A DNA stretch of 64,000 bases from an uncultured virus (IMG/VR IMGVR_UViG_3300033066_000375) (lineage: Duplodnaviria; Heunggongvirae; Uroviricota; Caudoviricetes): the IMG/VR virus record IMGVR_UViG_3300033066_000375, one strand, 5' to 3'. This document shows, one piece after another, positions 21,936-49,659 of the stretch. Made by a program: the position numbers and the translations under genes. The notes beneath the pieces are model-generated. The model saw only the letters and a list, made by a program, of their open reading frames with translations. It was not told the origin of the DNA and searched no databases. Positions within the stretch are counted from its first letter, which is position 1; the number at the start of each line of letters is the position of its first letter.

Positions 21936-22014
21936 GCCGTGTTAGCTCAGTCTGGCCAGAGCGTCTACCTTGTAAGTAGAGGGTTCGGGGGTTCGAATCC
22001 CTCACGCGGCACCA
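21936..22014 (+). tRNA. tRNA-Thr(UGU)
   Basis: TCTAC-CTTGTAA-GTAGA; CCA. Confidence 0.92.
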
Positions 22015-28357: not shown

Positions 28358-28490
28358 TGTCTCAGGAATGAGACAACTAGGGATGGCTTGTCCCGAAGTT
28401 ACGCCTTTGGACATCTGACCGCTTTATACAAAACATCGTGTGAACGTTGGATGGTTGAATTAGGAAAAGTAAAAAGCAATAAATATGGAC
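28358..28490 (+). ncRNA. Unknown structured RNA, copy A (homologous to 49524-49659)
   Basis: Shared collinear motifs TAGGGATGGCT..CCCGAA..ACGCCTTTGGACA..AACATCG..TGGT.GAATTAGGAA..GCARTAA. Confidence 0.6.
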
Positions 28491-28701
28491 TCAACAACTT
28501 AAGGAGATTCAAAATGCGTAATCTAATCAATCACTGGCAATGCTGGCTTGTTCCTGCCATTGCGATTGGCTTGGGTACGTTCATCATGGTAGTCATGGTG
28601 GATGCAGTCAACAAGTTCTAAAAACAAAAAGTAATTAAACCCTATTGACCTGTAGACATATTAATGGTATGCTACAGGTCAATTCATTTATGGGATCAAC
28701 A

Positions 28702-29658
28702 ATGTCTTTCCTAAACTCTTTGAAGTCCTTTTTCACCCTTAAGACTAGCGATCAATTGCGTGATGAGGCATTTGATAAAAAGCAAGAAAAGGTCAATAAT
28801 CAAGATTGGATGATTCGTAGACATGACCTTGATTATGTATATAATTCTTTGGGCACAATCTACAATGTTCAAAATTCTTGTATCACAAAATGTAAAGATA
28901 TTATTGTCAATTTACTTGGTGATAAGTATGCTGGACTGCTAAATCCGCCAATCATTCAACAGTGTATGGTAGATATGAACATTGGTGAGCGCAAGGGCGC
29001 CATTCACTTGCAGTGGGCTACTGGAAATTTCCAAGATGAAATGACTGTATTGTCTGTTGGTTTTTCGATTGCTGGATATAGGCTGACGTGTGCAAGTAAA
29101 TGTATTAGTCCTACTGGCGTTATTCGTGGTAGTTTTGTATCAGAATGGCTACCAGATATTGTAAGTCTACCTGGATGGTTTGAGGATGTTTTAGAGTTAC
29201 TTAAAAACACTCATCATGAACATATTACAGAACCTAACATGTTTGCAGATTTACACATTGAAAATGTTGTTGGTAAAACATTAATAGAAAACAACAATAA
29301 ATTAGATATCGTTCGTGGTATCAGGGATATCATTACATATTTACTTCACGATGAATACCAAGATTTAGCATATCATCCAATCATTAGTAAAAATCTTGCC
29401 AGTAATGATGATTATGTTATCAGCATGGGATTACAATGGAAACTTAAAAATGATACGGTTAGATTAGATGTAGCGCGTTATTTGACTAGAGACGACCAAT
29501 ATACAATTGAGTTTACTATTGGTGAAGGTGGTAATAAAGTTACACAACGATTTAATCACTTAGATGAAGAACAGGCTAAACAATTAGCTTTACCATTATG
29601 GTTTCTCGTTGCATTACAAAAGATTAAAAACAACGCAAATGAACGATCAGACACCTGA
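28702..29658 (+). CDS. Hypothetical protein with an internal duplication
   Basis: Two similar units (DII..LL.D.Y..L...PII...LQW...LP.WF). Confidence 0.65.
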   Translation: MSFLNSLKSFFTLKTSDQLRDEAFDKKQEKVNNQDWMIRRHDLDYVYNSLGTIYNVQNSCITKCKDIIVNLLGDKYAGLLNPPIIQQCMVDMNIGERKGAIHLQWATGNFQDEMTVLSVGFSIAGYRLTCASKCISPTGVIRGSFVSEWLPDIVSLPGWFEDVLELLKNTHHEHITEPNMFADLHIENVVGKTLIENNNKLDIVRGIRDIITYLLHDEYQDLAYHPIISKNLASNDDYVISMGLQWKLKNDTVRLDVARYLTRDDQYTIEFTIGEGGNKVTQRFNHLDEEQAKQLALPLWFLVALQKIKNNANERSDT

Positions 29659-29827
29659 GCAAAAACTGATAGCAGGATTAGAGCAAATAGTCAAGGATTG
29701 GTACGATCATTGTCCCAAATCCTTGACGTTTGTTTCTAAAGTAATACAACTATTCAGAGAGTACAAAAGAGAGGTTGACAAGTAATTAATTACAGCGTAT
29801 GCTTCACACATCAACAACGGATGTGTC

Positions 29828-30157
29828 ATGTGTACGCCGATCAACTACAAAGTCAAGAATCTTCCCTGGACTGCACCACCAATTAATCTTTTGTATGCTT
29901 ACCAGAATGCTAAGTGCTTCTATTGTGGTAAGTACATGGAATTTTTCGCGCATCGTGGTGGACACATCCTACAAAAAGGGTATACTATTGATCATCTGTT
30001 TCCAAGGTCTAAAGGTTTCCGTAAAGCAGGTAACAGTGTGCTAGCATGCCGTCGATGTAATGAAATCAAAGGTAACAGGATGCCTACTGTAAATGAAATC
30101 AATAAAGCTCTTCAGTTGTATCAAATCATGGGTCGTACTTTTATTTTGGAGGCTTAA
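29828..30157 (+). CDS. HNH endonuclease (McrA-like)
   Basis: CFYCG..TIDHLFPRSKG..NSVLACRRCNEIKG. Confidence 0.88.
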   Translation: MCTPINYKVKNLPWTAPPINLLYAYQNAKCFYCGKYMEFFAHRGGHILQKGYTIDHLFPRSKGFRKAGNSVLACRRCNEIKGNRMPTVNEINKALQLYQIMGRTFILEA

Positions 30158-30161
30158 GAAA

Positions 30162-30668
30162 ATGCTGAAAGTGTCACACTATGGCGCATCAATGAAGCCT
30201 GTCGAACTTCTCCAGCAGGCTGAACAAATTTGCAAGCTAATGGCAATTAAACTTAAGGAAAATCAAGTAGTTGTATTGTTTTACTCTGGAATGTCTGGAG
30301 TTGCTAGTGCTACTGCATTAGCACTAACTATGCAGCGATTTAATATGAAACTTGGTGGAATGGTATACATCCGTAAACAAAATGAAGTATCACATGGTAG
30401 TGATATTGAAACTAGTCTTATGAATGTGAAAAAAACCGATGATTTGGTTCCCATCTTTGTGGACGATTTTGTATGTAATGGCACAACATTTAAATATGTA
30501 CTCACTCGTGTGGTAAACAGAATTTCATACCGTGGAATGTTCTTTAACAAAACAAGTAGAAATGTGCTTAACATTTTTGATAAGTTATTGATTAATAAAG
30601 ATAATTGGTGGATTGCTCAATTAAACACCAAAGAACTAAAGAAAGCCAACAAAGTTCAAATGGAGTAA
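30162..30668 (+). CDS. Phosphoribosyltransferase-like protein
   Basis: YSGMSG; PRPP-binding loop IFVDDFVCNGTT. Confidence 0.7.
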   Translation: MLKVSHYGASMKPVELLQQAEQICKLMAIKLKENQVVVLFYSGMSGVASATALALTMQRFNMKLGGMVYIRKQNEVSHGSDIETSLMNVKKTDDLVPIFVDDFVCNGTTFKYVLTRVVNRISYRGMFFNKTSRNVLNIFDKLLINKDNWWIAQLNTKELKKANKVQME

Positions 30669-31008
30669 TTGAAAGTGCTTGACAGGGCCGAAGAAAAGGG
30701 TTATATTGTATACATGAAATGCAACTTCCTCACTGAAGAGGAAGTTGCAGAATCTAAGAAGTATCTCCGTGAATATCTTGAAAAGGATGAGGAAGAATGA
30801 CTTTCGGTGATGTTGTCAATGATATCAAGAATTTTGTAGGTGCGTATGTTTTCACTGGTCTGCAAATGATCTTCGCTGGTTGTGGCATTATCATTATGCA
30901 AGTGCTAGCATTCTTGCTGATGATTCCACTGATTGCTGTTGCGATCTACTGTGTTGCATATTTTCTTATGGGTATTATGAAAGTCTTTGAATTCATTTCT
31001 TACGGGCA

Positions 31009-31425
31009 TTGGTGATGCATCTTATAACTCCAACCACCAGACAAATGCGTTATTTTATGCGTGCTTGTCTGGCGATGAGTAAATCTACTCATGGCATTCC
31101 TACTGGCTGTGTTATTGTCTCTGGGAACTATGTAGTATCTGAAGGATTCAATCAAGAGAAATCCCATACAATTCAACATAGGAATGATCGAAGGGTTTCG
31201 TATTATGCCCCATATGCAAAAATTCACGCAGAAGTTAATGCATTAATTAAGTCGAAACATTTCGATCTTACTGATTGTGAAATCTTTCTGTTTCGTCAAG
31301 ATAAGCATGGTATGATTGCTAATAGTAGGCCGTGTATTTCGTGTATGCCAGCACTAATTGATGCTGGTATTAAGCATGTGTATTATACATCTACTGCTGG
31401 ATATTGTTATGAGCGTGTGTGTTAA
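31009..31425 (+). CDS. Cytidine/deoxycytidylate deaminase family protein
   Basis: HAEVNAL and SRPCISC zinc motifs. Confidence 0.88.
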   Translation: MVMHLITPTTRQMRYFMRACLAMSKSTHGIPTGCVIVSGNYVVSEGFNQEKSHTIQHRNDRRVSYYAPYAKIHAEVNALIKSKHFDLTDCEIFLFRQDKHGMIANSRPCISCMPALIDAGIKHVYYTSTAGYCYERVC

Positions 31426-31681
31426 TGAATTTTTATTTCAAATGGAAACTTCCTAAAACTAATAGAGCTATATTTGTATCAGAGAATGGCGATATCAAAG
31501 AAATGCGATTGGATGTACTATATCAAATTATACCATTCATTCAACTAGGAGATTGTGGAACAATCATAGACAACGGTGGAAGACCTAAATTTATCCTCTT
31601 AGCAGAAGAACAAGAAGAAGTGCCTTTACAATTAACCCATGATGTGGTATAGTACCACTACCTAATAAGAGAGGTTACACA

Positions 31682-33484
31682 ATGACATTACAAGTTTATA
31701 TTACTGAACACAATGATAAGTTCCTTTGTACTAAGGAACAGGCAGACGTATTAGATACGCTGCGCGAAGTTAATAAGGGTGGCATTGGTGCCGTCCATGG
31801 TTATGTTCCAACGTCTGGCTATGATATTTCCCCTGAATTGGATATCCAGTTCATTACTCGTATTTCAACTAATGCATTATACGAGCGAAAGATCGCTGCA
31901 TTAGAATCAATTAAGTTTGAAGATATTGTGAGCGAATTGGGACAGAATCCCAAACTTGCCGCATTGACGTTTAACGAAGCGAAGGATTTGTTTGAATTGC
32001 GTAAGCAGTCAAGCATTGATTCCATGAAGAAGACACTTTCCGGTGACCGTTCAGGTTCAGCCCGTGAAGGTCATGATCGTAATAATATTTCTGTCTGCCA
32101 GGGACTAAAGGTTAATCTTGAAGGTACAAAGGTTAATGGGCAGAAGATTCCAACATTGTACCCATTCAAGGGCGAAAAGCTCCCTAAGTGTGAAAGCATT
32201 CTGTTAAGCTATCTGGAAATTTCACGCACTGTTGTCAAGCCTGGACAGTATAAGGTGGTCAATTCTGGTGCGCCAGTGCTGATGAGCGATTTGATCGAAT
32301 CCAAGCTTAATAAGAAGAGTGTTGGTCTTAAGACTCTATCACTTGATCCATCCAAGTTCCGCAGCATTTCTCTTGCTAAGAAGCAGATTCTTCGCGAAGA
32401 CTTAGTTAATGCTACAAAGGATTTGACAATTGTTGAAATGATCATGCACCTGTTGAGTGAATATGATAACGAACAGACAGCCACGTCAAAGATTATCAAT
32501 CATATTATCTACGTGTTGGATTGTTCATCTTCAATGAGCCTTCATTTAGCTACTGCGCGTAAGGTATTAACTGATTCATTGGCAGCGATCAAAGCTACGT
32601 CTGAAAGTATGGGACAAGAGACTTATGTTTCTCTATACACATTCGCAGATAATGTTAATCGTTTGTTCGTGGATAAACCAATTAATCAGGTGAATCTGAA
32701 CAACATTAGATTTGACGCATATGGCTGGACTGCATTGATTGATGCAACTCTATTGCCAATTCTTGATGGATGTGAAACTCAGGTTGCTCGCGCTAAGAAA
32801 GAAAATCACGCTTATCTGTTGAATGTTATTACAGATGGTCAAGAGAATAAGTCGAAGGCTAAGGTCGCTGAATTGACCAATGTTATCAATAAGCTTAATG
32901 ATGAATGGACATTGGCTATTCAGGTTCCTGATATGAATGGTGTGTATTATGCAAAAAATTGTGGCTTCCCTGCTGGCAACATTCAGATTTGGAATCCTAA
33001 TTCACGTACTGGTTTAGAAGAAAGTACATCATCATTCGTGGACTCATATGCAAACTATGCTGCTGCGCGTAGTGCTGGCGCAACACAAAGCAAGGGCTTT
33101 TACACTGTAAATGCTGCTGATCTTTCACGATCAAATGTGAAGGCTGAACTTAATGAAGTCAAGGGTAAGATTTATCATGCTCAGTCTGGCCCATATCAGA
33201 TTAGGGATTTCATTGAGCAGTATGCCAAGGTTGTTTATAATAAGGGTAAGGCATATTATGAATTAGTCAAGCCTGAATTGATTCAATCTTCTAAGAAGAT
33301 TGTGATTGTTGATAAGGTTAGTGAAAAGAAGTTTGGTGGTGATGGCGCCCGTCAAATGCTTGGGATTCCTGCAAAGAATGTCAAGGTTGCCCCAGGTGAT
33401 TATGGTAACTATCGTATCTTCGTTCAGTCAACATCAGTCAACCGTAAGGTAGCCAAGGGAACTTCTGTCTTTCTTGAAGAATGA
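31682..33484 (+). CDS. Fusion protein: unknown N-terminal domain plus von Willebrand factor A domain
   Basis: MIDAS LDCSSSM, GWTALIDA and VITDGQEN motifs; N-terminal half paralogous to 57387-58151. Confidence 0.8.
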   Translation: MTLQVYITEHNDKFLCTKEQADVLDTLREVNKGGIGAVHGYVPTSGYDISPELDIQFITRISTNALYERKIAALESIKFEDIVSELGQNPKLAALTFNEAKDLFELRKQSSIDSMKKTLSGDRSGSAREGHDRNNISVCQGLKVNLEGTKVNGQKIPTLYPFKGEKLPKCESILLSYLEISRTVVKPGQYKVVNSGAPVLMSDLIESKLNKKSVGLKTLSLDPSKFRSISLAKKQILREDLVNATKDLTIVEMIMHLLSEYDNEQTATSKIINHIIYVLDCSSSMSLHLATARKVLTDSLAAIKATSESMGQETYVSLYTFADNVNRLFVDKPINQVNLNNIRFDAYGWTALIDATLLPILDGCETQVARAKKENHAYLLNVITDGQENKSKAKVAELTNVINKLNDEWTLAIQVPDMNGVYYAKNCGFPAGNIQIWNPNSRTGLEESTSSFVDSYANYAAARSAGATQSKGFYTVNAADLSRSNVKAELNEVKGKIYHAQSGPYQIRDFIEQYAKVVYNKGKAYYELVKPELIQSSKKIVIVDKVSEKKFGGDGARQMLGIPAKNVKVAPGDYGNYRIFVQSTSVNRKVAKGTSVFLEE

Positions 33485-33736
33485 TCTTGACAAGTAATTG
33501 ATTGTATAATATAATCCCCGTCTAGATAAATAACACTCTAGACGGGGATTTTTATGTTTACAACTTTTGTAATTCTGATGATCATTGCGTGGACTGTTGT
33601 TGGTATCATGTTCAAGTGTGCGATTGATTCTATGCAGAGTGAATCGTTCCATAAAATGTTTACTCATGCTCGTATTGGTGCTATACTCCTAACTGGAATA
33701 ACAATTATAACATTTATTAGTTAAGGGGCAATACAA

Positions 33737-34309
33737 GTGGGACAAACATGGTTTTCGAGCGATCAACATTATTCACATAAAAATATAATCAAATATTCAA
33801 ATCGTCCTTTCGCAGATGTTGAAGAGATGAATTATGAACTGATTAAACGATGGAACAAATGTGTGAAACCAGACGATACAATATATCATCTTGGTGATTT
33901 TGCATTTTGTAATATTGAAAAGATAGAATCGATTCTATCACAATTAAATGGCACTAAACATCTGATCAATGGTAATCATGATAAACAGATCAAACAAAAT
34001 CGTAGTAGATTGATTGATGGAGGATTTGTCAAATCAGTTAAAGATTATGACGAAATTTATATCAATGGCCAATTTATTGTGTTGTTTCATTATGGTTGTA
34101 GGGTTTGGTCGCGGAGCCATCATGGCGCATTTATGCTATACGGTCATTCACATTCATCTTTACCACCATTTGGTAAATCTGTAGATGTTGGTGTTGATTC
34201 TACCTGGGTCACTGGTAAAGCAGAATACCGCCCATTTTCATTTTATGAAATCAAACAATTTATGGACAGGCAAGTTTCAGAAGTTGTTGACCATCACGGT
34301 GCTGATTGA
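33737..34309 (+). CDS. Calcineurin-like metallophosphoesterase
   Basis: SDQH, LGDF, GNHD and YGHSH motifs. Confidence 0.9.
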   Translation: MGQTWFSSDQHYSHKNIIKYSNRPFADVEEMNYELIKRWNKCVKPDDTIYHLGDFAFCNIEKIESILSQLNGTKHLINGNHDKQIKQNRSRLIDGGFVKSVKDYDEIYINGQFIVLFHYGCRVWSRSHHGAFMLYGHSHSSLPPFGKSVDVGVDSTWVTGKAEYRPFSFYEIKQFMDRQVSEVVDHHGAD

Positions 34310-34366
34310 TTCAGCCACCGTTCATAAACATTTGCTATACTTCGATCATCGAATAGGAAGTCACCA

Positions 34367-34846
34367 ATGATTAAGATTATCAAGAAAGATATCACTACAG
34401 TCACCAAAGGTATTGTAGGTCAAGGGGTAAATTGCTTGGCTGTGATGGGTGCGGGAGTCGCTCTAGCTATTGCAAAGAAATGGCCAAAAGCATTAGCAGA
34501 ATATAAACAATATCTAGGAAAATTTGGCCAAACTCCATACCTAGCATTAGGCATGGTTCAATTGTCAGCCATTGATGATAAGGGTGAATTGATTATTGCC
34601 AATTGTTTTACTCAAGTAAGTGTTGGATATGACAAGGATGGTAACCCACCAGCTAGTCTCAGTGCTATTGAAGATTCACTGCGATCACTGGTGAAGACAT
34701 GTAATATCCGCCATCAAGACCTTTATACACCCCAGATTGGTTGTGGTCTTGGTGGACTGGACTGGGAAACTCAAGTGAAGCCTATCTATGAAAAGCTTTC
34801 TGAAGAGTTGGATGATGATTTGAATTGGTATGTATGTACAATCTAA
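34367..34846 (+). CDS. Macrodomain (Appr-1-p / ADP-ribose hydrolase, T4 Tk.4-like)
   Basis: GVNCLAVMGAGVA, IANCFTQ and PQIGCGLGGLDW motifs. Confidence 0.88.
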   Translation: MIKIIKKDITTVTKGIVGQGVNCLAVMGAGVALAIAKKWPKALAEYKQYLGKFGQTPYLALGMVQLSAIDDKGELIIANCFTQVSVGYDKDGNPPASLSAIEDSLRSLVKTCNIRHQDLYTPQIGCGLGGLDWETQVKPIYEKLSEELDDDLNWYVCTI

Positions 34847-36083
34847 GGAATGATTATGAACGAAAATATTAAAGATGCAACTTACAATGAAGGTAATGAA
34901 CGTCAGCGAATGCTAAATCAATTGGCAAAGAATGGCTTACGCGGTGATGATGTACATGGTAAGCTTGCTTGGAACATTGTCACACAGACTCATGAACTAG
35001 CATACAAGCAAGACGAACTCTTCGCTGAATTATGCAATCTAATCAATAAGATACGTAATAGTAGACGTTGATTTAGCTTTTAGAAACGTAATTTTATTCT
35101 GAGTGGATGGCTGTGGTATAGCTAGCAATGACTGTTGTTTTTATACCACACCAACATATCACACAGTGTATATGTACATTGTACATACGTATGCGTTAGC
35201 ATTTAATTTATTACTGGACTACATCATGTATAACACAGAAGATGAAGCTATTGCACGAATCGAATTCTGTCTACGTAGATCAACATTACTGTATAAGATT
35301 TATTTACTAGTAAGACGATTCAGCAATGTTTATTATGGTGACACTCCACCATTAAGCATTCATAATAGAATGCGCTCATTACATAATAATATGGACTACT
35401 ATTTAGATCAAGCTAGAAACGTTCGCTGTGATGGACATTCTGTTGATACAATTTTGAAGTATGTTTCTTCGAGAAAAACTGTGTTATCAGATATTACATA
35501 TAGAAAAGTTTACAGAAAGAAATTCTATTACAGTAAAGCTAATAGAATGTTGAGTAAATATCTTGAAGTTAGATATCCTCCAGCATTAAAAAATGCTAGT
35601 TACGTATGGAATCCATTACAAAATGAAAAAGTAGATGATGATATTGGTATAACTAAATTAGATGAACCGTATAACTATGATAACGGGTTCATCTATGACA
35701 CAGAGTTTTACCATCCAGAGATGGCCTGTGGATAACTTTTCCAGAGGGCATAGTCTCGCCAACCCTTGATAATAGCAGACCATTTCTGAACAGACACTGA
35801 ATATTTACATTTTCCTTAAAAAATATTTTTGAATCTGTTCAGCGTCAATTCAGTTATAAAAGAAGTCATTTCAGCTTCAACATACCTTAACACGTCAGAG
35901 ATCACATCACAAGTTACAATCTTTTATAAAAAAGTGCTTGACAAATATAAAGTAATAGTATAAAATGGGTGCGTGGTCGGAGAGAAGTGACGAGCAAACT
36001 AGTGTGGTGAAAATACAACAAAAATAAACCTTGACATGATTCCTTTATATGGTATGATGATCACAACAAACGGGAGACAACAC

Positions 36084-36461
36084 ATGCAATTCGATACCAC
36101 TGGTGGTCTGTCCTTCGAAAGTGCTTGTGATCTGGTCGTGATGCATTGTAATCCTGAAATGGCTGATATGGATAATCCGCGTGGTGAAGTTTATGGATAT
36201 CGCCCATTCATATTCGCTACTGATAGCATGGGTAATCGTAAAGTCATGTATACTGGTCCTGCTACTCGCGATGAAGGCGCTGCCATCAAAGATGCAGACA
36301 ATGTTGCAAAGTGCTTGCAGGCTCGCTGGAACAATTATCATAAGCTCCCCGTAGCATTCGATGCGTGGCAGGATACTCGCCCAGCATATGGTTCAGAAGC
36401 TTATCAGGCATATGGCGCAGCTGATGATCTGGCATGGGAACGTGAGCAAGAGTTTTATTGA
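36084..36461 (+). CDS. Hypothetical early protein
   Basis: TTGACA promoter and RBS GGGAG; RPAYGSEAY motif. Confidence 0.65.
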   Translation: MQFDTTGGLSFESACDLVVMHCNPEMADMDNPRGEVYGYRPFIFATDSMGNRKVMYTGPATRDEGAAIKDADNVAKCLQARWNNYHKLPVAFDAWQDTRPAYGSEAYQAYGAADDLAWEREQEFY

Positions 36462-36520
36462 TTCAGTCACCGTTCAGCTAAGTTCTGTATAATACAATCC
36501 ATACCAACGGAGACAAGCAA

Positions 36521-37039
36521 ATGACCATCGAATCTGATCTGCGCGATGCCTTCAACCGTCACATGGACAAAGCATGCAGTCTTTATCCGAATCTGGCAAT
36601 CATTCGCAATCGTCTGCAATTCATCATTGAACCGAACATGGGTCAACGTGCGGGCACTGCCCGTGGTGCTTCTGAAATCCGTGTGAATCTGGCAATGGCG
36701 AAACAGAATTTTGATCACATCGCGAACGATACCATCCCGCATGAGATTGCGCATATCATCTGCAATCATTTCAATTGGGACAATGGCCATGGGCGCATGT
36801 GGAAACGTGTAGCAGCATCGCTTGGAATCGTTCCAAATCGTTGCTTTTCCACTGTTGACACAGGCATCAAGCCTGTTATGATGCGTCAACGGCTCAAGTA
36901 TCTGCACAAGGCAACGTGTGGGACTGAAATCTGGCTCAGTGATGTGATGCATGGTAAGATCATGCGGGGTGGCATCCGCGTCATTTCCCGTACTGGTGGT
37001 AAGTTGAAGGCTAGCACATACATGGATCAAGTGAAATGA
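36521..37039 (+). CDS. SprT-like zinc metalloprotease
   Basis: RAGTA, TIPHEIAH and GHGRMWK motifs. Confidence 0.85.
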   Translation: MTIESDLRDAFNRHMDKACSLYPNLAIIRNRLQFIIEPNMGQRAGTARGASEIRVNLAMAKQNFDHIANDTIPHEIAHIICNHFNWDNGHGRMWKRVAASLGIVPNRCFSTVDTGIKPVMMRQRLKYLHKATCGTEIWLSDVMHGKIMRGGIRVISRTGGKLKASTYMDQVK

Positions 37040-37314
37040 TAACCCCATCGGCATGGATGTTTGAGCAGTTTTGTATAACTTGTCCTGAATATCAGTATGA
37101 AAATGAATGGGCTGTACAATACGCTGATACCCATCCATCACATTTTTTCATATATGATGAGAAACAATTTCGCAACATAAAGCCCTTGTACTCTGTAGGG
37201 AATGTGTTAGACTTGCTGACTGATGACAAAGCACGCGAAGAGTTTCTAGCTGAGTTTCTGAATAAATAGTTCTTGCATACTGCAATAGTATGATGTATAG
37301 TAGCAAAACAGTCT

Positions 37315-37415
37315 GGGAGCGTGGCCAAGTGGTAAGGCAGCAGACTTTTTTAGTACTTTTTCGAGAGTATTAAAAAATCTGTTCATCGTGGGTTCGAATC
37401 CCACCGCTCCCACCA
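37315..37415 (+). tRNA. tRNA-Lys(UUU) with 26-nt hairpin insertion (putative intron)
   Basis: GGGAGCG/CGCTCCC acceptor, intact D and T arms, CCA; GCAGA/TCTGT stem encloses 33 nt (37345-37377). Confidence 0.85.
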
Positions 37416-38074
37416 AATTTTCTAGGAAAATCAAATGCTTAATCGAACACTTGAAGAGTACGAGCAGATGATCGGCCAGCGCGTCACAAAGAAACGTGGT
37501 GGACGTATGCCCAAACCGTTCAAATCCAAGTTGACAATCAACACTGTCAAGGGTATTATCAATCATCCGCACCTGAACATTCCAGCGTTCACGTTCGAAG
37601 AGGATGATTCGTTTGTTGAATGTCGTCGCTGCCATACGGTGAATGAAAATGAGTAAGGGCAAAAGCGTCAAAGATGAATTTGTGACATTGGAACGAACAG
37701 CGCAATTGATCGCGCTTTTTTGCTACTCTCCCCGACCACGCACCCATTTTACCATATCATTACTGAACTAAAACTGAACGGGAGATTGCTCCCCCGTTGT
37801 ATTACGTGAACCATCCGATGATGCAACCGATAGGCCACAAGAAGATTGCAATGATGCGGATGATTGTTTCACCATCCAATGCGGTTGCATTCCACACTGC
37901 TTTGACATTCATCACCCAACCAGCAGCCATTGCTGCGATGAACAGCCCGACCACCATAACAGTAAACCAGCCAGTGATACTATCGGTGACACGAGTGTAA
38001 GTTTTCCAAGACATTCTATTGCTCCTAAGTGTAATGTAACTATAAACTAATTACCAACCATTGTCAATAGCTTT

Positions 38075-40642: not shown

Positions 40643-40719
40643 CTTACATTGGCATAACTCAGTCGGTAGAGCGGGCAAACGTCCTTATGCGCAGGTTCGA
40701 CCCCTGCTGTCAATGTAAG
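40643..40719 (+). ncRNA. tRNA-like RNA lacking an anticodon loop, extended acceptor stem, no CCA
   Basis: 12-bp CTTACATTGGCA/TGTCAATGTAAG; D arm CTCAGTCGGTAGAG; GGGC-AAAC-GTCC; T arm GCAGG-TTCGACC-CCTGC. Confidence 0.7.
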
Positions 40720-40765
40720 CGCCCACGGGTAAGCGTCTAAAGAGGCTCGGACGCAAATTTTTAGA

Positions 40766-40849
40766 GTCGATTGGTGAGTCATCTAATTTGGGAAGATACT
40801 GCCGAAGCGTCGGTGAAAATGTAAGTTCGATTCTTACCCGCCAGTCGAT
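40766..40849 (+). ncRNA. Second tRNA-like RNA with 4-nt anticodon-position loop and extended acceptor
   Basis: GTCGATTGGTG/CGCCAGTCGAT; ATCT/AGAT D arm; GCCGA-AGCG-TCGGT; GTAAG-TTCGATT-CTTAC. Confidence 0.65.
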
Positions 40850-41523
40850 AAAGTACACCGTGAACTAATTCAATGTTAAACAAACGGAGAGTGTATATCA
40901 CGACATCGTTTAGCACCGTCACCAAAATTCGCTCATTGGAGAATTGATTCAGCGCCCGTTCAGCACCACTGATATATAATATCAACATCAACCTGGAGAG
41001 AAAATCATGAAAAATTATCGCGTGACTTTCCAGGGTAAAGTGATTGTGTTGAATGAAAAATCCACCGCTGAAATGATCTTGAACCTTCACGGGGGCGGAT
41101 TGAGTGAAACGCAAACGATCAAGGCGATGAACGCTCAACGTCGATTGGATGAAAATGGTAGTATTACGTTAAAGACTTTCAAAGGTCTGCCCGTGTTGTT
41201 TGAAACCATCAAGGAATGATTATGAACGAAATCCGCAGAATCAGTGGAAACCTTTGGCGCGAATACCACCGAACCGAAACCATGGTTCGGGCACATTCGT
41301 TCCCATGGCATGAACTGACGCAATTTAATATTGGCACAGTGTATCCCATTGAAGTGTGGAATGCTGGCGAACGTCGAGAAGATTTGGAAGCAAAAAGTTA
41401 GGATGTTCCCGAAAATTGTTTCGGGAACATCCACTGAGGATAAAACAATGGCATACACATACATCAAAATAACCTTCTCCGACCACGCACCCATTTTATC
41501 ATATCATTGCTGAACCTAAGCTG

Positions 41524-41752
41524 AATGGCGGGGAGCGACCCCGCCATTCATTTGTTACAAACCGACCTTGGTGTCGGCGGACCATCCCAGAGTGGTAGGA
41601 GACTTCACCTTTTTCGACCGCACTTTATCTCTTGGGTGACGGTTACCCAGAACACGTATCGTGTGTTCCATCCCTACGGGCTATGGCCATCAACTACAAT
41701 ATCGCACTTTCGACTCCTTGCCCTTTATGGCTGCTGCGCTTTAGTGTGGGAG
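41524..41752 (-). ncRNA. Candidate structured ncRNA
   Basis: Own promoter (41754-41787) and terminal hairpin (41524-41548); several hairpins; no convincing ORF. Confidence 0.45.
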
Positions 41753-41790
41753 AACTATATCATTATGTTGCTGAACAGTTCCTGAATGAT

Positions 41791-41946
41791 TTACTTCTTT
41801 TTGTCGAAAAAATCGTCAGGGAGTGCTGGACAGTCTGAATAATCAATCGGCATTGCATCCAGCCGTGCCAACTCTTCGGCAGTCATTGTCGGAAGGTTGT
41901 TTGGATCAATCGTGAATTGTACGTATTTGATTTCTTTTTCTGGCAT
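41791..41946 (-). CDS. 51-aa BrnA-antitoxin-like peptide (not in the ORF track)
   Basis: MPEKEIKYVQFTIDPNNLPTMTAEELARLDAMPIDYSDCPALPDDFFDKKK*; own promoter at 41975-42008. Confidence 0.65.
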   Translation of the reverse strand: MPEKEIKYVQFTIDPNNLPTMTAEELARLDAMPIDYSDCPALPDDFFDKKK

Positions 41947-42370
41947 TGTTTGATCACCGTTTCAATGTGTGAGAACTATAGCACTATCTATATGAATCAT
42001 TCCTGAACAAATTGTACCAGCATTCGTTACATTCTGTTCAGCAACAATTCAGCACAATTTGATATATTACACATAAATAAGAATGTTATCATGGGTTTAT
42101 TGTAGTATCATCATTATATCTACTCGTTGGAAGAAAATGATATATTGAATCAATAGTTAGAATGATAATAGTAAATGAAATCTCGACGCAATTAAGAATT
42201 TCTTTTGGTCATGTGATCTTTGTTTTAGGTTGAAATCTCTACGGATGTTTCAAATAATTGAGAGGCTATTATGACATTGAGTGAACAGATAACACAACCC
42301 ACCTGTTCAGGCTTTGTTCATTTTCATTACGTTATAATTCATCCACACTAAAGCACTGGAGCAAAACGCC

Positions 42371-43246
42371 ATGAGCAAGGTTCATCAGATTCTGACTGAC
42401 AAAGTGTTGGAAATGATCAAGAATGGTGTTGCTCCCTGGAAGCGTCCGTGGCGCTCTACTGGTCGCCCGCGTAACATTCGCGGAACCAATTACAATGGTA
42501 TCAATTATTTCATCCTGGCCATGACTGCCGAAATGAATGGCTGGTCGAATGTCTGGATGACGTATAATCAGATCAAAGAGCGTGGTGGCACGATCAAGGA
42601 AGATCAGCGCAAGAATGGCACCTGTGCATATTTCTACAAGATGTTGCAGCGCGAAAATCAGGTGACTGGTGATATTGAAAACAGTCATCCGATGTTCCGT
42701 TTCTTTCTGGTCTACAATCTGTCCCAGGTTGATGGAATCGTGGTCAAAGGTGTCAACGATGGAAGTGATCCAGTCCATGCTGAATTGCCTGCACCGCAGA
42801 GCATCGTGGATGGCTACCAAAACGCTCCTGAAATTCGTTTCGGTAGTGGGAGTGCGTACTATACTCCTGTGACTGATAAGATCAGCATGCCGCTGCTGAG
42901 TGCGTTTGATACGCCAGAACACTACTATGCCACCATGTTCCATGAAATGGCGCATAGCACTGGTCATCTGACTCGTTTGAATCGCAAGGAAGTCATGGAC
43001 CCCATCGTGTTTGGCTCCCACGATTATTCGCTGGAAGAATTGGTTGCAGAGCTTACCAGTGTCTACCTTTGTGATGAATGCGGAATCGCCAATGAGCGAG
43101 TGATGCAGAATTCCGCAGCATATCTGAAAAGCTGGTATGATACTCTCAAGAATGATCCGAACATGTTTGCCACTGCCGCCAGTCGTGCGCAAAAGGCTGC
43201 AACGCACATTCTTGGGAAGGTTGAAGAGACTGTCGAAGAGGATTGA
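42371..43246 (+). CDS. ardC: ArdC-family antirestriction protein (ssDNA-binding plus zincin-like domain)
   Basis: APWKRPW, YNGIN, WMTYNQ, VYNLSQ, AYY.P..D.I.MP, HEMAHSTG and EELVAEL motifs. Confidence 0.9.
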   Translation: MSKVHQILTDKVLEMIKNGVAPWKRPWRSTGRPRNIRGTNYNGINYFILAMTAEMNGWSNVWMTYNQIKERGGTIKEDQRKNGTCAYFYKMLQRENQVTGDIENSHPMFRFFLVYNLSQVDGIVVKGVNDGSDPVHAELPAPQSIVDGYQNAPEIRFGSGSAYYTPVTDKISMPLLSAFDTPEHYYATMFHEMAHSTGHLTRLNRKEVMDPIVFGSHDYSLEELVAELTSVYLCDECGIANERVMQNSAAYLKSWYDTLKNDPNMFATAASRAQKAATHILGKVEETVEED

Positions 43247-43308
43247 TTCAGTAACCATTCAGCATGGATAGTGGATAATACTATCCATGCTGAACACAAC
43301 GGAGAATA

Positions 43309-43674
43309 ATGATGGATCGTCAAACAGCTAAGAACATTGTGGCAAATATCGGAGTCATCCAGGCTTATGCCGAAGGCAAAACTATTGAGTTTTTTTCTTT
43401 TGGTAAATGGAACGAAATATTTCAACCAAATTTTGATTCGCCTGCAACACATTATCGCGTCAAACCCGCGAAGTTCATCGTGTGTCCTGAGTGTGAGGGC
43501 CATGGCACCATCATGAATATCAGCATGGGCGGGCACGCCTACACCTGAACCGATTGAAATTGATTTCTGGCATAAACCAGAAAGTCAAATCTACCAATGT
43601 GATCGAATCAACGGTTCAGATGCGTATATGATTGGGCAAGGTTATCGCAAGGTTAAATTGAGAGAAGTAATCTG
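43309..43674 (+). pseudogene. Phage hypothetical gene disrupted by a 79-nt insertion copied from the 56152 gene
   Basis: Removing 43467-43545 restores ...YRVKPEPIEIDFW...RKVKLREVI*. Confidence 0.7.
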
Positions 43675-44708
43675 ATTCAGCAACCATTCATCTAGTGTGT
43701 AGTATGATAGCTTCACACTAGATCAAACGGAGAATGAAATGTCGGATGAAATGGCACTGGAAGCACTGGCGCGGATGGCGGAAGATGCTGGCGATTTCAT
43801 GGAAGCTGAGCGCCTCCGCGAACCCTCCTACAATCAATCGAAGGAAGTTTGATTATGAATATAATTGGTTTGTTGCGAATTCTATTTACACCTGCGTGTT
43901 GGATTCGTAATTATCCGACATCCAAAAAGTTGACAAAATTTATCAATGATTCTCTGGATGCTGGGCATATTCCAGTGGTAGAATCACGCTACACACACAA
44001 ATTGAATGGAAAAATCATATGGACAGGAAATTACCCATATGCATATGGACTTAGTGAAAAGAGAAATTGTGCGCCAGATAGAATCACAGTTTTTCGATTG
44101 TTTGATGTTATTAATGATAAGGACCAACCATTCAATGAATGATAATAATGAATGTATAATCGAATATCGTGTTGCGGAATGTGTTGCAATTCTCGCTGCG
44201 TTTGCTACAATACTCTTGCTGACCATCTAGGAGCATAACACCCATGCCGCAGATTCTTGATGAAAAGATTGTGAAGATGTTGGATGATGCTTTTGTGATC
44301 GTGTTGAAATACGATCAAGAGTATGACCAAGGGTATCGCGATGGTTTGGAATCATTCGCGTTGGCATTGGGTAACACGATTCCAGAAGGTCTGCTGATTG
44401 ATGCACTACAATCCGCGCTTGATGCCTTTGCAAATAACACATAATAGAGGGTAAATATATGCCGCCATATAATGCCAGAGCTTCGCCGTGAATATCTAAA
44501 TGATTTCATGTTATCATAATAAGTTACCTCCTTGGAAAGTAGGGCCAGCAATGACCCTACTTTTTTATTTTGGCCACCATTCTTCCCGACCACGCATCCA
44601 TTTTAGCACATCGCCCCTGAACGGATACTGAACGTAAGTCATTGATTTCGTTCAGGTTCTATTCATCATGCTACTGTAGAATACATTACATCAACCAAGG
44701 AGAGCGCC

Positions 44709-46102
44709 ATGCAGAACTTTAACATTGAACTCACCTTTGGCAAGGCTCAAGGTTCTTGTGGTGGCACCTATCGTACTAGCACCATCGAAGAGGCATTGGA
44801 ACGCGCCAAGCGCGATGCAGTGTCCTATAAGGGTGAACCGAAGATCAAGGTCCAGGGTCCAGACGGTTATTGGTACACCTTCAAACGTGCCAAACAATTG
44901 TGGTACAAGTTTGAATTTAATGCTTGACTTTCAACATCACCATCTGTAGAATACATTACATCAACCAGGGAGAATCATCATGGAACGTCAAATTCATGGT
45001 TTCAGCGAACAATTCCTGAACGAACTTGCAGATCGGTTCGATCTGAATCTGGATACTGTCATCAATTATGCTCGCATCTGTCGCGAGAATGATGAGCCGG
45101 GTGAATTGGAATCCATTCTGGTCGAAGTCTCGCAAGAATTGCATGATGAAGATTGGTTCGATGAGCCGGATGATGGTCAGCCCAGTGAAATGCAAGAATG
45201 GCATGATTTTGACCCTGACTGTTAAGTTGGGGTTCATGTAAGTAGTGTAGAATACATTACACCAACTAAGGAACAATAAATGAATATTTTCTGCGTGCTT
45301 GAAGATGGTGAAACTTTCAGTGGTGTGAATAATAGCACCATCGCCATTTACCCTGATGATGACACCATGTGCGCAGAAGATTTGGATTTGCTTAATAGTG
45401 GAACCTTGCCAGAAAATCCACAATTCGTCTTGTCATTGGATGTGCTGTTGCAGCAAGCGATAGAACATAAACTACCATGTGTAAGCAATATTCAGCATTT
45501 GTTCAGCTAAGTCTTGTATAATACATTACATCAACCAAGGGGAATATCATGTTGGAAGCTGACAATCTCTGGGAAGCTGAATGGAATCAATGGGTTGCAT
45601 CGTTGGAAGAGCATGAATTGGGAGCAGAAAATGAAATCCAAAGCTGAGATTGCTGAATTCATTCGCGAGCATGGCGCGAATCCTGTATTCTGGTTGGATG
45701 CTTTGGGAACCAGCATCTATCTCACTCAGTGCGAAGCAAAGGAACGAGTACAGCAGCGCGCCCATGACAAGTTGAAAGCGTTTATCGAATTCATTATGGA
45801 GGATGCAAATGAAATTTAAGACTGGTGTAGCAGATGTAGATGGAACACATCTTCAAGGTTACGTCAAGACCACTTACGCACATCTTGTGCATATTCTTGG
45901 CAAGCCGAACTGTACCGATGGTGACAAAACGACTGCTGAATGGGACATTCGTTTTGATGATGGCACTGTCGCCACCATTTACGATTGGAAGACTGATCAA
46001 ACACCCAAGGGGTTGTATGATTGGCATGTTGGTGGAAATGAACCGCGTGCAGTGTTGCTGGTTGGCATGATTCTGAATTCTGCCGTAAGTTACGGTTGGT
46101 AA
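44709..46102 (+). other. Tandem small early ORFs, most with their own promoter/leader (44709-44927, 44980-45225, 45280-45510, 45631-45819, 45809-46102)
   Basis: Repeated leader TGTAGAATACATTACAYCAACYARGG at about 44676, 44946, 45247 and 45515. Confidence 0.7.
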
Positions 46103-46234
46103 GGTAAACGAAACCTGAACATCTATCACGGATGTTCAGGTTTTTCTTGACTTATAATTAATTACATGGTAAAATGGGTGCGTGGTCGGGGAAAACTCCT
46201 TTGCGATAAATAGAAATAAAAGGAGTTTTACAAA

Positions 46235-46795
46235 ATGGCAAATACAAAGATTAGTGCGTTGACTACTGCTGGCGCGCTTACTGGATCAGAAGTTTTACCT
46301 ATAGTACAATCAAGTGAAACCAAGAAAATCACTGTTGATACTTTGGTAGATCATACAATAGATAGCATTTCAAATGCTAGCACAACTGTTATAGGTGTAG
46401 TAGAATTGGCTACTGCTGCTAAAGTTTCTGCTGGCGCATCAGATACAGTTGCTATGACCCCACAGTCGTATAAAGACAGCATACCATATTATGTTGATCG
46501 TACTACAAACTGGACATTAGCATTAACTGATAGGAACAAAGATCAATGGTTCAATAGCGCTGGTCTTGTTTGTTCTATACCAACTAATGCTACCGTTCCA
46601 TTTGAGATAGGTGCTACTATACCATGCTTACGCCTAACATCTGGCAGTGCTACCATTGATGCTGTCGGCGGTGTGACTTTGAATGGTGTTCTTAGTGGTA
46701 CATGTACTATTAGAACTCAATACCAAGGTGCATTACTTAAGAAGGTTGGAACTGATTCGTGGGTTATCAGCGGTGAAGTGAGTGCAGTAGCATGA
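46235..46795 (+). CDS. Tail-fibre-like structural protein
   Basis: MANTKISALT..LTGSEVLPIVQ, GVVELAT repeat, IPTNATVPFEIG..DSWVISG; late-type TAAATA upstream. Confidence 0.65.
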   Translation: MANTKISALTTAGALTGSEVLPIVQSSETKKITVDTLVDHTIDSISNASTTVIGVVELATAAKVSAGASDTVAMTPQSYKDSIPYYVDRTTNWTLALTDRNKDQWFNSAGLVCSIPTNATVPFEIGATIPCLRLTSGSATIDAVGGVTLNGVLSGTCTIRTQYQGALLKKVGTDSWVISGEVSAVA

Positions 46796-47535
46796 TGATA
46801 CCACAATATAGAACCCAGCGTAATAGCCAGGGCATCTTTATGATGGAGGAAAGATTCACATCATCATATGTGACTGCTGGCAATTATCAAAATCATTCAC
46901 TATCATTTACGGCAGCACCTGTTGCTGGTCAGTTGATTATTATGACTGGTCATGTTAGAATTTTGAATAAAGCATGTTCAATGACTCCACCTACAATTAA
47001 TGGTAGTCCATTCTTATTGGCTGCTGTTGGTGGAACATTCGGGTTAGATAGTCCAGGTGCTAGAGGATATTTAACTTACATTTGGTATAGAACTGCCACA
47101 AGCGATGATACAACCAACGCCTACACCGCTGCATTCAATATTGCAGATGGTGTGGCTACCAGTATGATTTCATTGACAAAATTCTCTGGAGGCTCGTATT
47201 GGGGCACTCCTATTGATCCATACACAACACCTAATTCCACATATGCCAATAGCATTGCTAACAGTGTGGCGTTTATACAGGCTGGTGCGACTGGTGTCAA
47301 CGTATCATTAGGTGGATTTGTTATTGCAGCAGCAACTAAGTTTGGCTCTGCATCAACACCTACTTTGACAAATTCATTCAGTTTAACTTCACAAACAATG
47401 AGTTATACTCCAAACGGTATATTTCATGTTGCGCGTAAAGACAACTATGATTCTGCTCAAACTAATCAAAACACTACATTTACATATGGCGCAAATGATT
47501 ATTTTGCTGGCGCTGTAGCAGCATTTAATCCATAA
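46792..47535 (+). CDS. Ser/Thr/Gly-rich beta protein, putative receptor-binding or tail adhesin
   Basis: Composition; translational coupling to the fibre-like gene; bidirectional terminator at 47537-47562. Confidence 0.5.
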   Translation: MMIPQYRTQRNSQGIFMMEERFTSSYVTAGNYQNHSLSFTAAPVAGQLIIMTGHVRILNKACSMTPPTINGSPFLLAAVGGTFGLDSPGARGYLTYIWYRTATSDDTTNAYTAAFNIADGVATSMISLTKFSGGSYWGTPIDPYTTPNSTYANSIANSVAFIQAGATGVNVSLGGFVIAAATKFGSASTPTLTNSFSLTSQTMSYTPNGIFHVARKDNYDSAQTNQNTTFTYGANDYFAGAVAAFNP

Positions 47536-47759
47536 CAAAAAATGCCCCGAAAGGGGCATTTTAATATTGGCGGTTTGTCTGCCAAGCTGCTTCTTCAATC
47601 TTAGCAGCATTTATTGCCTCTTCCTCTGTATACCATTCAGACACGGGACGAATTGGTATATGAAATGCGCTGAATACGCCCCACATTTCCTGGTCATCCA
47701 GGTACGCGACATAATAATTTGTCAACATGAATGTTGCTTCTGACATACATCCTCCAAAT

Positions 47760-48058
47760 AAATCGCCCCACTCGGTTGACTAGAACGAGTGGGGCAGCCC
47801 TGTAGCAAATCTTTAATAGGGACTTTTTGTCAAAGGATCGTCCCAGTCTTTCTACCTTACAGCTACTGTAGGGAAGCTGCAACCTTCCAGCTATGCTGTT
47901 ACATTATGGGAATGCCAAGTCATGATTAAGTATTCCTTAAGGCGTCCGTAGACTATTCAGAAAGCTTTGGGCAACTTGGCCGATACTATCTGGCGATGTC
48001 GTGAATCCCTACACTTTCCACCGTTTCGACCCGGTTGTCATTACCGCTGCCGATGAGT
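47760..48058 (-). ncRNA. Candidate structured ncRNA or leader of about 290 nt
   Basis: TTGCAA-N17-TATAGT promoter at 48061-48089; multiple hairpins; GC-rich hairpin at 47765-47795 before the small ORF 47561-47746. Confidence 0.45.
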
Positions 48059-48794
48059 GAACTATACGCTCGCCTAGCTACCATTGCAACAACTATTTTG
48101 TAACAAGTTTAGTTACATTTCATTCATATTACATTCAGACTATTGTGTTATACTGTTTCAAATTAACTAATGGGCATTACCAATGCACAAGAAAATTATC
48201 ACCAATAAGATTGATCTAGGTTTTCCGAGTGAGAGTATATCACTTGCGCATCTGATTTCACTGGTTGGCAGTCATGTAAATAGTGCGAATATAACATTCG
48301 AATGGTATCGCGATTCTGTAGATATGTTCTTGTGTTTTGATCGTGAAGAAACGGACGAAGAGTTTGAAATTCGATTGGCTAAAGAAAGAATTCAAGATGT
48401 CAAAAAGCGTGAACGATTGATCTCTGAAGCCGAAAAGCTGAAGCGTAAGATTGCGGGGGAACACTCGACGCATTGAACAGATCAATAAGTTGTTGACATC
48501 AAGTTGATGATGTAATATAATACTTACATCAAGACAGGGGGATGGTCATGAAAGTTGAACTCAAGAAAGTGTTCATGACCATCACCGATGCTGCTGGCAA
48601 TGTCAAGATGAAAAAGAAAGTTGCTGCGCATTGTAAATGGGATGCTACACCAATCATTGCAAACAATTTCATCAACAGGCTTGCAAAGGATCGGGTGAAG
48701 GTGTATTATGATTTCAATGAAGGATGCGATCTGTATGCGAACTTCACAGTAGGCAAGCATACGTTGCTGCAACAGAGCTTCAAGATTATTCAAA

Positions 48795-48950
48795 GGTGAC
48801 GATGATCCTGCATGGGGTAGGGACATAGAGTGCTACTATCCATGAATGAAGGTACATATAGACTGTTAGCGCAGATTATAGTATGATTTACGGAAACGGG
48901 TAAGGTGCGCTAACACCTAAGCCTAGCGGGTTCGATTCCTGCCGTCACCA
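48795..48950 (+). ncRNA. tRNA-like RNA with an insertion of about 80 nt
   Basis: GGTGACG/CGTCACC acceptor, T arm GCGGG-TTCGATT-CCTGC, internal perfect 10-bp helix TGTTAGCGCA/TGCGCTAACA. Confidence 0.55.
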
Positions 48951-49523
48951 CTCATCTCTATCTAGGATAAAATCATGGCAAACACAACCAAGTATGTTGT
49001 AGTTGAAGACACGTTCAACGATATGGAATTGGCATTTACGTTTCCAGTATTGATTAACCACGATCACTTTTTCAATGCGCTCAATGCAAGCCATTTCAAC
49101 AACAAATTGAAGGTGGTTGGCGCTGGTTTTTACGATTTTAAGACGAATGAAGCATATGGTGAGTCAATTTCATTGAATGTAAAATCACGGGAACGTGACA
49201 CACTCGTTATTCAGAAAGCATTCATGTTTACATGATCAAGCGCCCTTCGGGGCGCTTTCTTTTTGTCCACTATCTCTCCGACCACGCACCCATTTTAGCA
49301 TAATATAACTGAATACAAGATGAATGGGACTGCTTTCACCAGTCCCATTCATTTACAGATGTTCGCGGTGTGATGTTCCCAACATCTCTCTAGGGCTGTT
49401 CCACTAGAGCAACACTATGTATAAACTCATTATCATTCATATGATTTATAGTATTCATCCAGTCATCGACTGTTACTCTAGTCAGGTCCAAGTCATTTTT
49501 AGTTTCCTTTGTCAGATCGTTAG

Positions 49524-49659
49524 AAGACACTTACTGCTCTGTGATTATCACACTTCCTAATTCCACCACGTAACTTGTTTCGATGTTCTGAGTACAGAGG
49601 TTTTCGTGTCCAAAGGCGTTGATTCGGGTTGAGCCATCCCTATTGCGTTTCAGTGACGC
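49524..49659 (-). ncRNA. Unknown structured RNA, copy B
   Basis: Homologous to 28358-28490; promoter at 49661-49694; terminator-like hairpin at 49323-49349. Confidence 0.6.

Follow-up and report, generated by a model that had tools for sequence, protein, structure and literature searches.

The 64,000-nucleotide (nt) stretch of the uncultured virus IMGVR_UViG_3300033066_000375, hereafter called the window, carries two diverged copies of one structured RNA, copy A at 28378-28466 on the plus strand and copy B at 49554-49642 on the minus strand. Judged from the sequence, both RNAs would be, with a probability of about 85%, scaffolds of TnpB guide RNAs (omegaRNA/reRNA) of a subfamily with the RAGATH-18 kink-turn core. 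The RNA is a divergent, RAGATH-18-like TnpB guide-RNA scaffold that is unseen by Rfam, and it is no new class. Homology, covariation, tnpB adjacency in the relatives, a sharp 3' boundary and a tnpB remnant at copy A were all observed.

TnpB is a protein that binds such a scaffold and cuts DNA matching the guide beside a transposon-associated motif (TAM). The usual target is the empty site of its own element, and the cutting aids the persistence or homing of that element. In the intact relatives of the window copies, the RNA would begin within the last tnpB codons and continue as a fixed 15-nt hairpin (P1), a conserved linker, and a kink-turn that closes a variable hairpin (P2), the predicted kink-turn strands being CCU-UU-G-GA and nnn-GA-A-UU-AGG. 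A further hairpin (P3) and a short tail would come next, and the following 16-20 nt of the flanking DNA would serve as the guide.

A covarying RNA family

The 36-nt pattern TAGGGATGGCT-n3-CCCGAA-n3-ACGCCTTTGGACA has exactly two matches in the window, at 28378-28413 (+) and 49607-49642 (-), and none of 100 shuffled sequences contained any match. The 3' block TGGTnGAATTAGGAA recurs at 28452-28466 (+) and 49554-49568 (-), and the mean column identity in the pairwise alignment of the two copies was 79%. The likeness between copies A and B, which the initial annotation had described as collinear blocks in two diverged copies, is thus confirmed as real. The Rfam search that the initial annotation had proposed returned only fourteen tRNAs when the whole window was scanned at the gathering threshold, with no family match on either copy; at E <= 10, scans of both regions gave chance matches elsewhere only (Glutamine-II, preQ1-II and others). 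When both copies were compared by blastn with 50,697 GenBank phages, zero matches were obtained.

Relatives were gathered by patterns requiring the invariant blocks. An exact-pattern scan of IMG/VR with CCCGAAnnnACGCCTTTGG gave 29 loci, of which 21 carried the whole motif and eight proved, on reading, to be fortuitous matches in coding DNA. With a second pattern, 83 viral loci and at least 120 loci in genomes or metagenome-assembled genomes (MAGs) were obtained. The layout of the family is UA, P1, RAAUUN-ACGCCUUUGGA, P2 and nnn-GAAUUAGGAA, followed by a variable P3 and a short lineage-specific tail, the common core being UA-P1-RAAUUN-ACGCCUUUGGA-P2-nnnGAAUUAGGAA. P1 is constant at 15 nt and occurs in the variants GGG...CCC, CCC...GGG, CCGCA...UGCGG and CGGUG...CACCG. 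The GGG/CCC pairing that had been taken for a possible pseudoknot is the ordinary stem of the P1 hairpin, and the proposed GGC/GCC pairing found no support, as the P1 loop varies while ACGCC never changes.

Twenty-one short-form viral sequences, with the window left out, served to build a covariance model, R1. In these sequences, 89.3% of cells were paired, compared with a shuffled mean of 59.0%; none of 500 shuffles was that high. Changes on both sides were seen in 12 of 12 pairs, slid controls gave 33.5-46.0%, and RNAalifold placed an additional invariant closing helix, CCU/AGG. Searched over 98 sources at E <= 0.001, R1 gave 57 matches in viral and MAG contigs, including 39 of 80 viral loci from the second scan and eight of nine MAG loci (L110-L112 were left out). 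Among the 52 distinct sequences, whose alignment was fitted to R1 and hence leans toward the structure, 93.0% of cells were paired, compared with 31.6-45.4% for slid partners and with 0/500 shuffles reaching this value. Both sides of the outermost P1 pair had changed in 21 of 51 cells, and the CCU/AGG blocks were invariant in all 52 sequences. On the window itself, R1 gave exactly two matches, 49551-49645 (-) and 28375-28469 (+). The conserved single-stranded blocks between covarying helices that the initial annotation had noticed are borne out by this model, with P1 and P2 covarying strongly.

The 3' boundary of the RNA is sharp. Seven family members, linked to tnpB and solo alike, align through ...AGCA(G) and continue into unrelated sequence. 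Of the IMG/VR contigs behind L003, L007, L027 and L028 (also L037, L054, L102 and L103), three from one metagenome start or stop within the scaffold; these are identical through ...TTTATTTAACTAT and then diverge, which points to a multi-copy element that breaks assemblies. A viral contig, L051, holds a gene resembling transfer-messenger RNA (tmRNA) at 1057-1429 (-), about 70 nt 3' of a solo scaffold copy; it scored 46.4 bits at a gathering score of 47.

Relation to tnpB and to RAGATH-18

Forty-six distinct loci were searched by tblastn, and 36 of them had at least 800 nt upstream. In this pattern-biased collection, full or near-full TnpB was encoded at 21 of the 36 loci and a remnant at three, copy A among them; the other 12, which include copy B, had no TnpB and are called solo copies here. 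HTH_OrfB_IS605, OrfB_IS605 and Cas12f1-like TNB were recognised by Pfam in 10 of 18 upstream frames, and TNB alone in one more; the remaining seven matched RecA, RecJ, topoisomerase, succinyl-CoA ligase and similar proteins, or had no match. The linked tnpB frames extend into the scaffold, with the stop codon inside P2, and their products align with the TnpB of ISDra2 and keep the three RuvC motifs.

The overlap of frame and RNA raises the possibility that the similarity is protein-coding conservation of the C-terminal tail of TnpB and not RNA structure. It is real in the linked copies and in copy A, where P1 to the first P2 bases lie inside the tnpB frame (stop codon at 28416-28418). Nevertheless, P1 flips between GGG...CCC and CCC...GGG and takes other pairs, which alters the codons, the changes on both sides of its outermost pair being those counted above; the invariant GAAUUAGGAA block and the 3' strand of P2 lie beyond the stop codon; and a frame of this kind is absent from copy B and from the remaining solo copies. 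For these three reasons the constraint must act on the RNA, and the coding explanation is scarcely credible. The small-ORF (open reading frame) alternative named in the initial annotation was in this way addressed, and P1 does covary.

Three of the linked relatives carry a tnpB-linked element of about 1405 bp, at 3118-4520 of L234, 2023-3427 of L236 and 1721-3125 of L238 (coordinates oriented with the RNA on the plus strand, L234 being the reverse complement of the stored locus). It occupies unrelated gene neighbourhoods in the three phages. Its left end bears TATAAATAG, which presumably resembles a T4 late promoter, and a 52-amino-acid (aa) ORF without a Pfam match, which may resemble a recombinase helix-turn-helix. 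No transposase gene was seen in the elements of L234, L236 and L238; inspection of three linked elements revealed no gene for a serine recombinase, and no HUH transposase gene was noticed beside the linked copies inspected.

The linked phage TnpBs matched the TnpB of ISDra2 (IS200/IS605; PDB 8BF8, 8EXA, 8H1J) at E 1.4e-47 to 3.4e-74 and that of ISFba1 (8IAZ) at E 1.5e-44 to 5.1e-48, and are thus at least as close to the former as to the latter. As with the ISDra2 omegaRNA, the RNA overlaps the 3' end of tnpB, stops at the right boundary of the element and is followed by the guide. According to Ren et al. (2024, PMC11061315), the reRNA that guides TnpB of the IS607 family is built around RAGATH-18 as its core, has pseudoknots and conserved flanks on the 5' and 3' sides, and carries a guide of 20 nt; TnpB of the IS607 type adjoins 64% of RAGATH-18 matches. 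The IS607 reRNA is described there as independent of the coding sequence, whereas the scaffold studied here overlaps the end of the tnpB frame.

With a short-form member as blastn query, 21 nt were matched in Herelleviridae phages of Staphylococcus, and the records of some of these phages label the place as a 'RAGATH-18' misc_RNA; the other short-form matches were one Klebsiella phage and a few weak ones. At this place, the Staphylococcus phage locus L233 was matched by both models, by RF03064 with 67.8 bits at 1513-1603, over CCUUUGGAG...GAAAAAGGAA, and by R1 with 53.2 bits at 1484-1606, covering the same core plus the upstream P1 hairpin. The conserved RNA accordingly reaches 5' beyond the Rfam model, by the hairpin P1 and the linker RAAUUNACG. 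With RAGATH-18 (RF03064; ISFba1 reRNA, PDB 8IAZ) the family has in common the CCU/AGG closing helix, a GGA / nnnGAA kink-turn around a variable hairpin, the ...AGGAA 3' end and a position adjoining tnpB. It differs in that the inner AGUAG...CAAAA module, present in L233, is absent from the window copies and the short-form members, and in that kink-turn position 4b:4n is U:U here and G:U there.

The structure of the RAGATH-18 kink-turn has been solved and a rule set given, according to PMC8191799. By sequence, the kink-turn of copy A reads CCUUU-GGA-C... / ...G-GUU-GA-A-UU-AGG, and that of copy B reads the same with the loop GUG, so that both retain the kink-turn-defining tandem G.A/A.G and 3b:3n A:G positions. 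P2 would correspond to the C-helix and CCU/AGG would close the NC-helix; the GGA and nnnGAA blocks fit the solved kink-turn.

Several results weigh against the assignment. RF03064 was silent on both window copies at E <= 10, neither copy reached its gathering threshold of 44.9 bits, and at E <= 1 it missed all 27 of the further R1 loci scanned; only one bridging sequence and the common core thus tie the family to RAGATH-18, which makes the link indirect. No tnpB, and hence no candidate partner protein for either copy, was found anywhere in the 64-kb window, and tblastn found no trace of tnpB on either side of copy B. The predicted inner helices of the P2 insert of copy B are weaker than those of its relatives. 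The shares of linked and solo loci are biased because the collecting patterns demand the invariant blocks.

A TnpB-independent class, be it a riboswitch, a ribozyme or another regulator, would account for the lack of an Rfam match, for the conserved single-stranded blocks, for the 12 of 36 loci that have no tnpB, and for the diversity of the downstream genes. However, the scaffold lies at the 3' end of an intact tnpB at 21 of the 36 loci, its core is that of an experimentally established TnpB reRNA motif, no consistent downstream gene speaks for a riboswitch, and no ribozyme family matched; we regard this explanation as very improbable. The suggestion of a ribozyme, riboswitch or protein-binding RNA in the initial annotation is hence narrowed to the last of the three as the most likely, nothing supporting the other two. 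Its remark that it could not assign the RNA to a family holds insofar as no Rfam model reports the copies, but the RNA is assignable as a TnpB guide-RNA scaffold. Two further candidates were rejected. A promoter-proximal leader or antiterminator, considered because of -10-like boxes before P1, was discarded since these boxes fall inside tnpB coding sequence in the linked copies, and a gene-specific riboswitch was dropped in view of the diverse downstream ORFs.

The two window copies and their surroundings

The features of copy A, all on the plus strand, are as follows.

28284-28418, plus strand: tnpB 3'-end remnant, a 44-codon open frame ending in ...CGHRMDRDWNAAKNIYVSGMRQLGMACPEVTPLDI and a stop codon (tblastn, blastn, ORF list)
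28359-28374, plus strand: 5' hairpin GUCUCAGGAAUGAGAC, within the tnpB remnant and kept in tnpB-linked relatives
28378-28466, plus strand: scaffold core (R1 match 28375-28469, 49.9 bits, E 4.7e-10; pattern match)
28378-79, plus strand: UA
28380-28394, plus strand: P1
28395-28411, plus strand: junction J1/2, GAAGUUACGCCUUUGGA
28412-28453, plus strand: P2 with a long insert
28454-28466, plus strand: junction J2/3, GUUGAAUUAGGAA
28467-28478, plus strand: degenerate 3' end in which the P3 of relatives is absent and an AAAGCA tail-like stretch is left (family alignment)
28479-28498, plus strand: would-be guide site ATAAATATGGACTCAACAAC, probably unused; family similarity ends after ...AGCA(G)

As shown by blastn, copy A is 91-93% identical over 28305-28466 to the three tnpB-linked elements of about 1.4 kb (L234, L236 and L238), and about 70 nt of the tnpB end is all of the gene that survives in this homologous stretch. 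The matches obtained by tblastn with the TnpBs of relatives, at 28278/28308-28412, cover TnpB residues ~335/364-405 only (about 35-45 codons). The remnant retains only the last RuvC motif (DRDWNAAKNI) and overlaps the 5' half of the RNA. At the other end, the likeness to L234, L236 and L238 does not extend past GGAA, and the P3 hairpin is thus lost. Because tnpB is mostly deleted, with its last codons left, and the 3' hairpin is gone, copy A appears to be a deletion relic of the ~1.4-kb tnpB-RNA element, stripped of nearly all of tnpB and of P3. With up to 3 mismatches allowed, a search of the window gave no second site for its guide.

Just 5' of copy A, the ORF at 27640-27957 aligns only with positions 203-301 of a 374-position phosphohydrolase PHROG, and short overlapping frames follow it within 27640-28287; this may be a broken gene beside the tnpB deletion.

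The features of copy B, all on the minus strand, are listed from 5' to 3'.

49755-49783, minus strand: weak sigma-70-like promoter match TTTCCA-17-GATAAT, 5' of copy B (9/12, consensus scan only)
49645-49659, minus strand: 5' hairpin GCGUCACUGAAACGC, directly before copy B
49554-49642, minus strand: scaffold core (R1 match 49551-49645, 54.7 bits, E 3.1e-11)
49641-42, minus strand: UA
49626-49640, minus strand: P1
49609-49625, minus strand: junction J1/2
49567-49608, minus strand: P2 with insert
49595-49599, minus strand: CUCUG in the P2 insert, candidate pseudoknot partner of CAGAG at 49537-49541 (complementarity in copy B)
49554-49566, minus strand: junction J2/3, GUGGAAUUAGGAA
49540-49553, minus strand: P3 hairpin GUGUGAUAAUCACA, 5 bp with a 3-nt loop
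49534-49539, minus strand: scaffold tail GAGCAG, the conserved 3' boundary of the family
49514-49533, minus strand: putative 20-nt guide UAAGUGUCUUCUAACGAUCU, by its position right after the scaffold boundary
49320-49352, minus strand: terminator-like 13-bp hairpin 3' of copy B (consensus scan only)

The 5' hairpin reported before each copy in the initial annotation is present in both lists. The promoter and terminator it had ascribed to copy B were found as the weak 9/12 site and the hairpin listed, both of them from consensus scans only. A perfect promoter, TTGACA-16-TATAAT, lies at 49727-49754 (+) and points away from copy B, toward the gene at 49762.

Copy B is 81% identical to the solo copy L235 of phage G001, over the scaffold only and with unrelated flanks (blastn), and about 71-72% identical over the scaffold to the linked copies L234, L236 and L238. 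Its P3 is a shortened form of the 10-12 bp P3 of relatives, in which the counterparts of the tail are GGAAGCAG or CGGAGCAG. Since family members diverge right after the tail, the putative guide is placed at 49533-49514. Copy B may form a minus-strand unit of scaffold plus guide, which could act only with TnpB supplied in trans, because these 64 kb hold no tnpB.

No second match to the guide of copy B was found in the window. In IMG/VR, its first 16 nt matched seven loci that represent two independent sites, with at most 17 nt matching, a result put at chance level by a rough estimate and not by a computed control. Contigs over 47800-51200 were obtained from four DNA runs, and three of them carry copy B without differences; no insertion polymorphism was found among these contigs, that is, no joints and no contig skipping copy B. 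A search for an empty site through the neighbouring proteins gave 0 loci for the 139-aa protein and no pattern match for the 337-aa protein.

A covarying helix, GCTTT/AAAGC in one copy and CTCTG/CAGAG in the other, had also been claimed. The complementary segments do exist (GCTTT at 28421-28425 and AAAGC at 28473-28477 in copy A), and the candidate helix would connect the P2 insert with the tail just 5' of the guide. In the solo copy L235, CUCU lies in a predicted hairpin loop opposite a GGAG tail. In the A-type copies, the tnpB-linked relatives of copy A, however, part of the 5' segment, a U-run, is predicted to pair inside P2 instead. The long-range pairing looks convincing in copy B and L235, but as a candidate pseudoknot it is overall plausible but unsettled. 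Pseudoknots are described for the ISFba1 reRNA by Ren et al. (2024, PMC11061315).

Genes for rIIA, rIIB and RNA ligase, together with the many tRNAs, give the window a T4-like look. The fourteen tRNA genes found with Rfam lie at 13954-22011 and 37315-37412. Those at 17698-17836 and 37315-37412 are, at 139 nt and 98 nt, longer than usual and may contain insertions or introns. At 42371-43246 (+) there is an ArdC-like gene for anti-restriction and metallopeptidase functions. A repeat of about 24 nt, TAAAATGGGTGCGTGGTCGGAG, has ten copies between 35959 and 56824 with at most 3 mismatches, where 0 are expected by chance.

35959, plus strand: TAAAATGGGTGCGTGGTCGGAG repeat
37730, minus strand: TAAAATGGGTGCGTGGTCGGAG repeat
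39702, plus strand: TAAAATGGGTGCGTGGTCGGAG repeat
41477, minus strand: TAAAATGGGTGCGTGGTCGGAG repeat
44584, minus strand: TAAAATGGGTGCGTGGTCGGAG repeat
46168, plus strand: TAAAATGGGTGCGTGGTCGGAG repeat
49276, minus strand: TAAAATGGGTGCGTGGTCGGAG repeat
52071, plus strand: TAAAATGGGTGCGTGGTCGGAG repeat
52934, minus strand: TAAAATGGGTGCGTGGTCGGAG repeat
56801, plus strand: TAAAATGGGTGCGTGGTCGGAG repeat

The repeat looks like a -10 box leading into a conserved start of transcription, a pattern suggestive of transcription units that alternate, and it also occurs several times in the relative L235.

Solo copies in related phages

R1 and the Pfam families of TnpB were run against whole records of related phages, with the following counts.

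G001, 100% complete: one linked and one solo copy
G005, 79% complete: one linked and two solo copies
G006, 95% complete: one linked and one solo copy
G008, 100% complete: one linked and two solo copies
G004, 100% complete: linked copy only
G002, fragment: one linked and one solo copy

All four near-complete genomes (79-100%) with a solo copy also encode one linked copy, a coexistence that fits the use of solo copies in trans and equally fits duplication followed by decay. In three phages (window copy B, L235 and L237), the similarity of the solo copies spans UA-P1 to the scaffold tail and the flanks are unrelated. Copy A contrasts with them, its breakpoint lying inside tnpB and off the scaffold boundary. 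For the guide of G001's solo copy, a further site with 3 mismatches lies at G001:C1:77559-77578 (-), 1.1 kb downstream and on the same strand; the backward-pattern control gave 0, and the site is probably the start of a paralogous gene.

Both window copies might be inert leftovers of decayed tnpB elements, their conservation reflecting recent decay, and we give this slightly less than an even chance. Copy A is clearly a deletion product, with tnpB down to about 40 codons and P3 gone; the window lacks tnpB; copy B has its shortened P3 and the weak predicted helices in its P2 insert; and neither guide has another match in the window. However, the R1 core score of copy B (54.7 bits) is above those of the intact linked relatives L234, L236 and L238 (48.0-48.5 bits), the solo copies in window B, L235 and L237 are bounded by UA-P1 and the tail, unlike copy A, and a solo copy beside one linked copy recurs in 4/4 near-complete genomes.

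Alternatively, copy B may function as a guide-RNA gene in its own right, whose RNA is loaded by a cognate TnpB from another part of the phage genome or from a co-infecting relative and gives that nuclease a second target. In that case the element would act as a selfish mini homing unit or as a weapon against competitors. We consider this possible but rather unlikely. It is consistent with the one linked plus one or two solo copies of G001, G005, G006, G008 and the fragment G002, with the intact core, P3 and tail of copy B, and with its place in a small minus-strand unit of its own, flanked by the promoter-like site and the terminator-like hairpin (consensus scan). Nevertheless, no cognate TnpB was found in the 64-kb window and no target for the guide, the IMG/VR matches being those at estimated chance level reported above.

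A conceptual precedent by analogy comes from the VIPR-null phages with solo vrRNAs, which, according to a preprint (10.64898/2026.10.15.759431), have had the effector deleted and keep one or two lone guide RNAs. The likeness is one of logic only. The RNA described there, with GGYNN repeats and a pseudoknot tail, is unrelated, as is the effector, and the precedent, taken as an analogy, shows that such logic exists and is no evidence for the present case. Solo TnpB guide RNAs in T4-like or jumbo phages were not found in the full-text literature, subscription journals being outside its coverage.

As regards the window, the outcome is a modest one, a known system being represented by one relic and one orphan. 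A wider proposal, which we hold to be improbable, is that large phages run TnpB as a split multi-guide system and that this phage, having lost tnpB, keeps copy B as a means of redirecting the TnpB of co-infecting relatives, or as a nuclease-free homing element that rides on this TnpB. If true, this would be the TnpB counterpart of the VIPR-null solo guide RNAs and a possible step toward array-type storage of guides.

More generally, a previously unknown structured RNA becomes an annotatable feature, namely TnpB guide-RNA scaffolds missed by the current Rfam RAGATH-18 model. The copies without tnpB pose a testable question, whether they are junk, trans-acting extra guides, or hijackers of the nucleases of other phages, and this question is worth testing because four near-complete genomes of large phages combine a linked copy with one or two solo copies.

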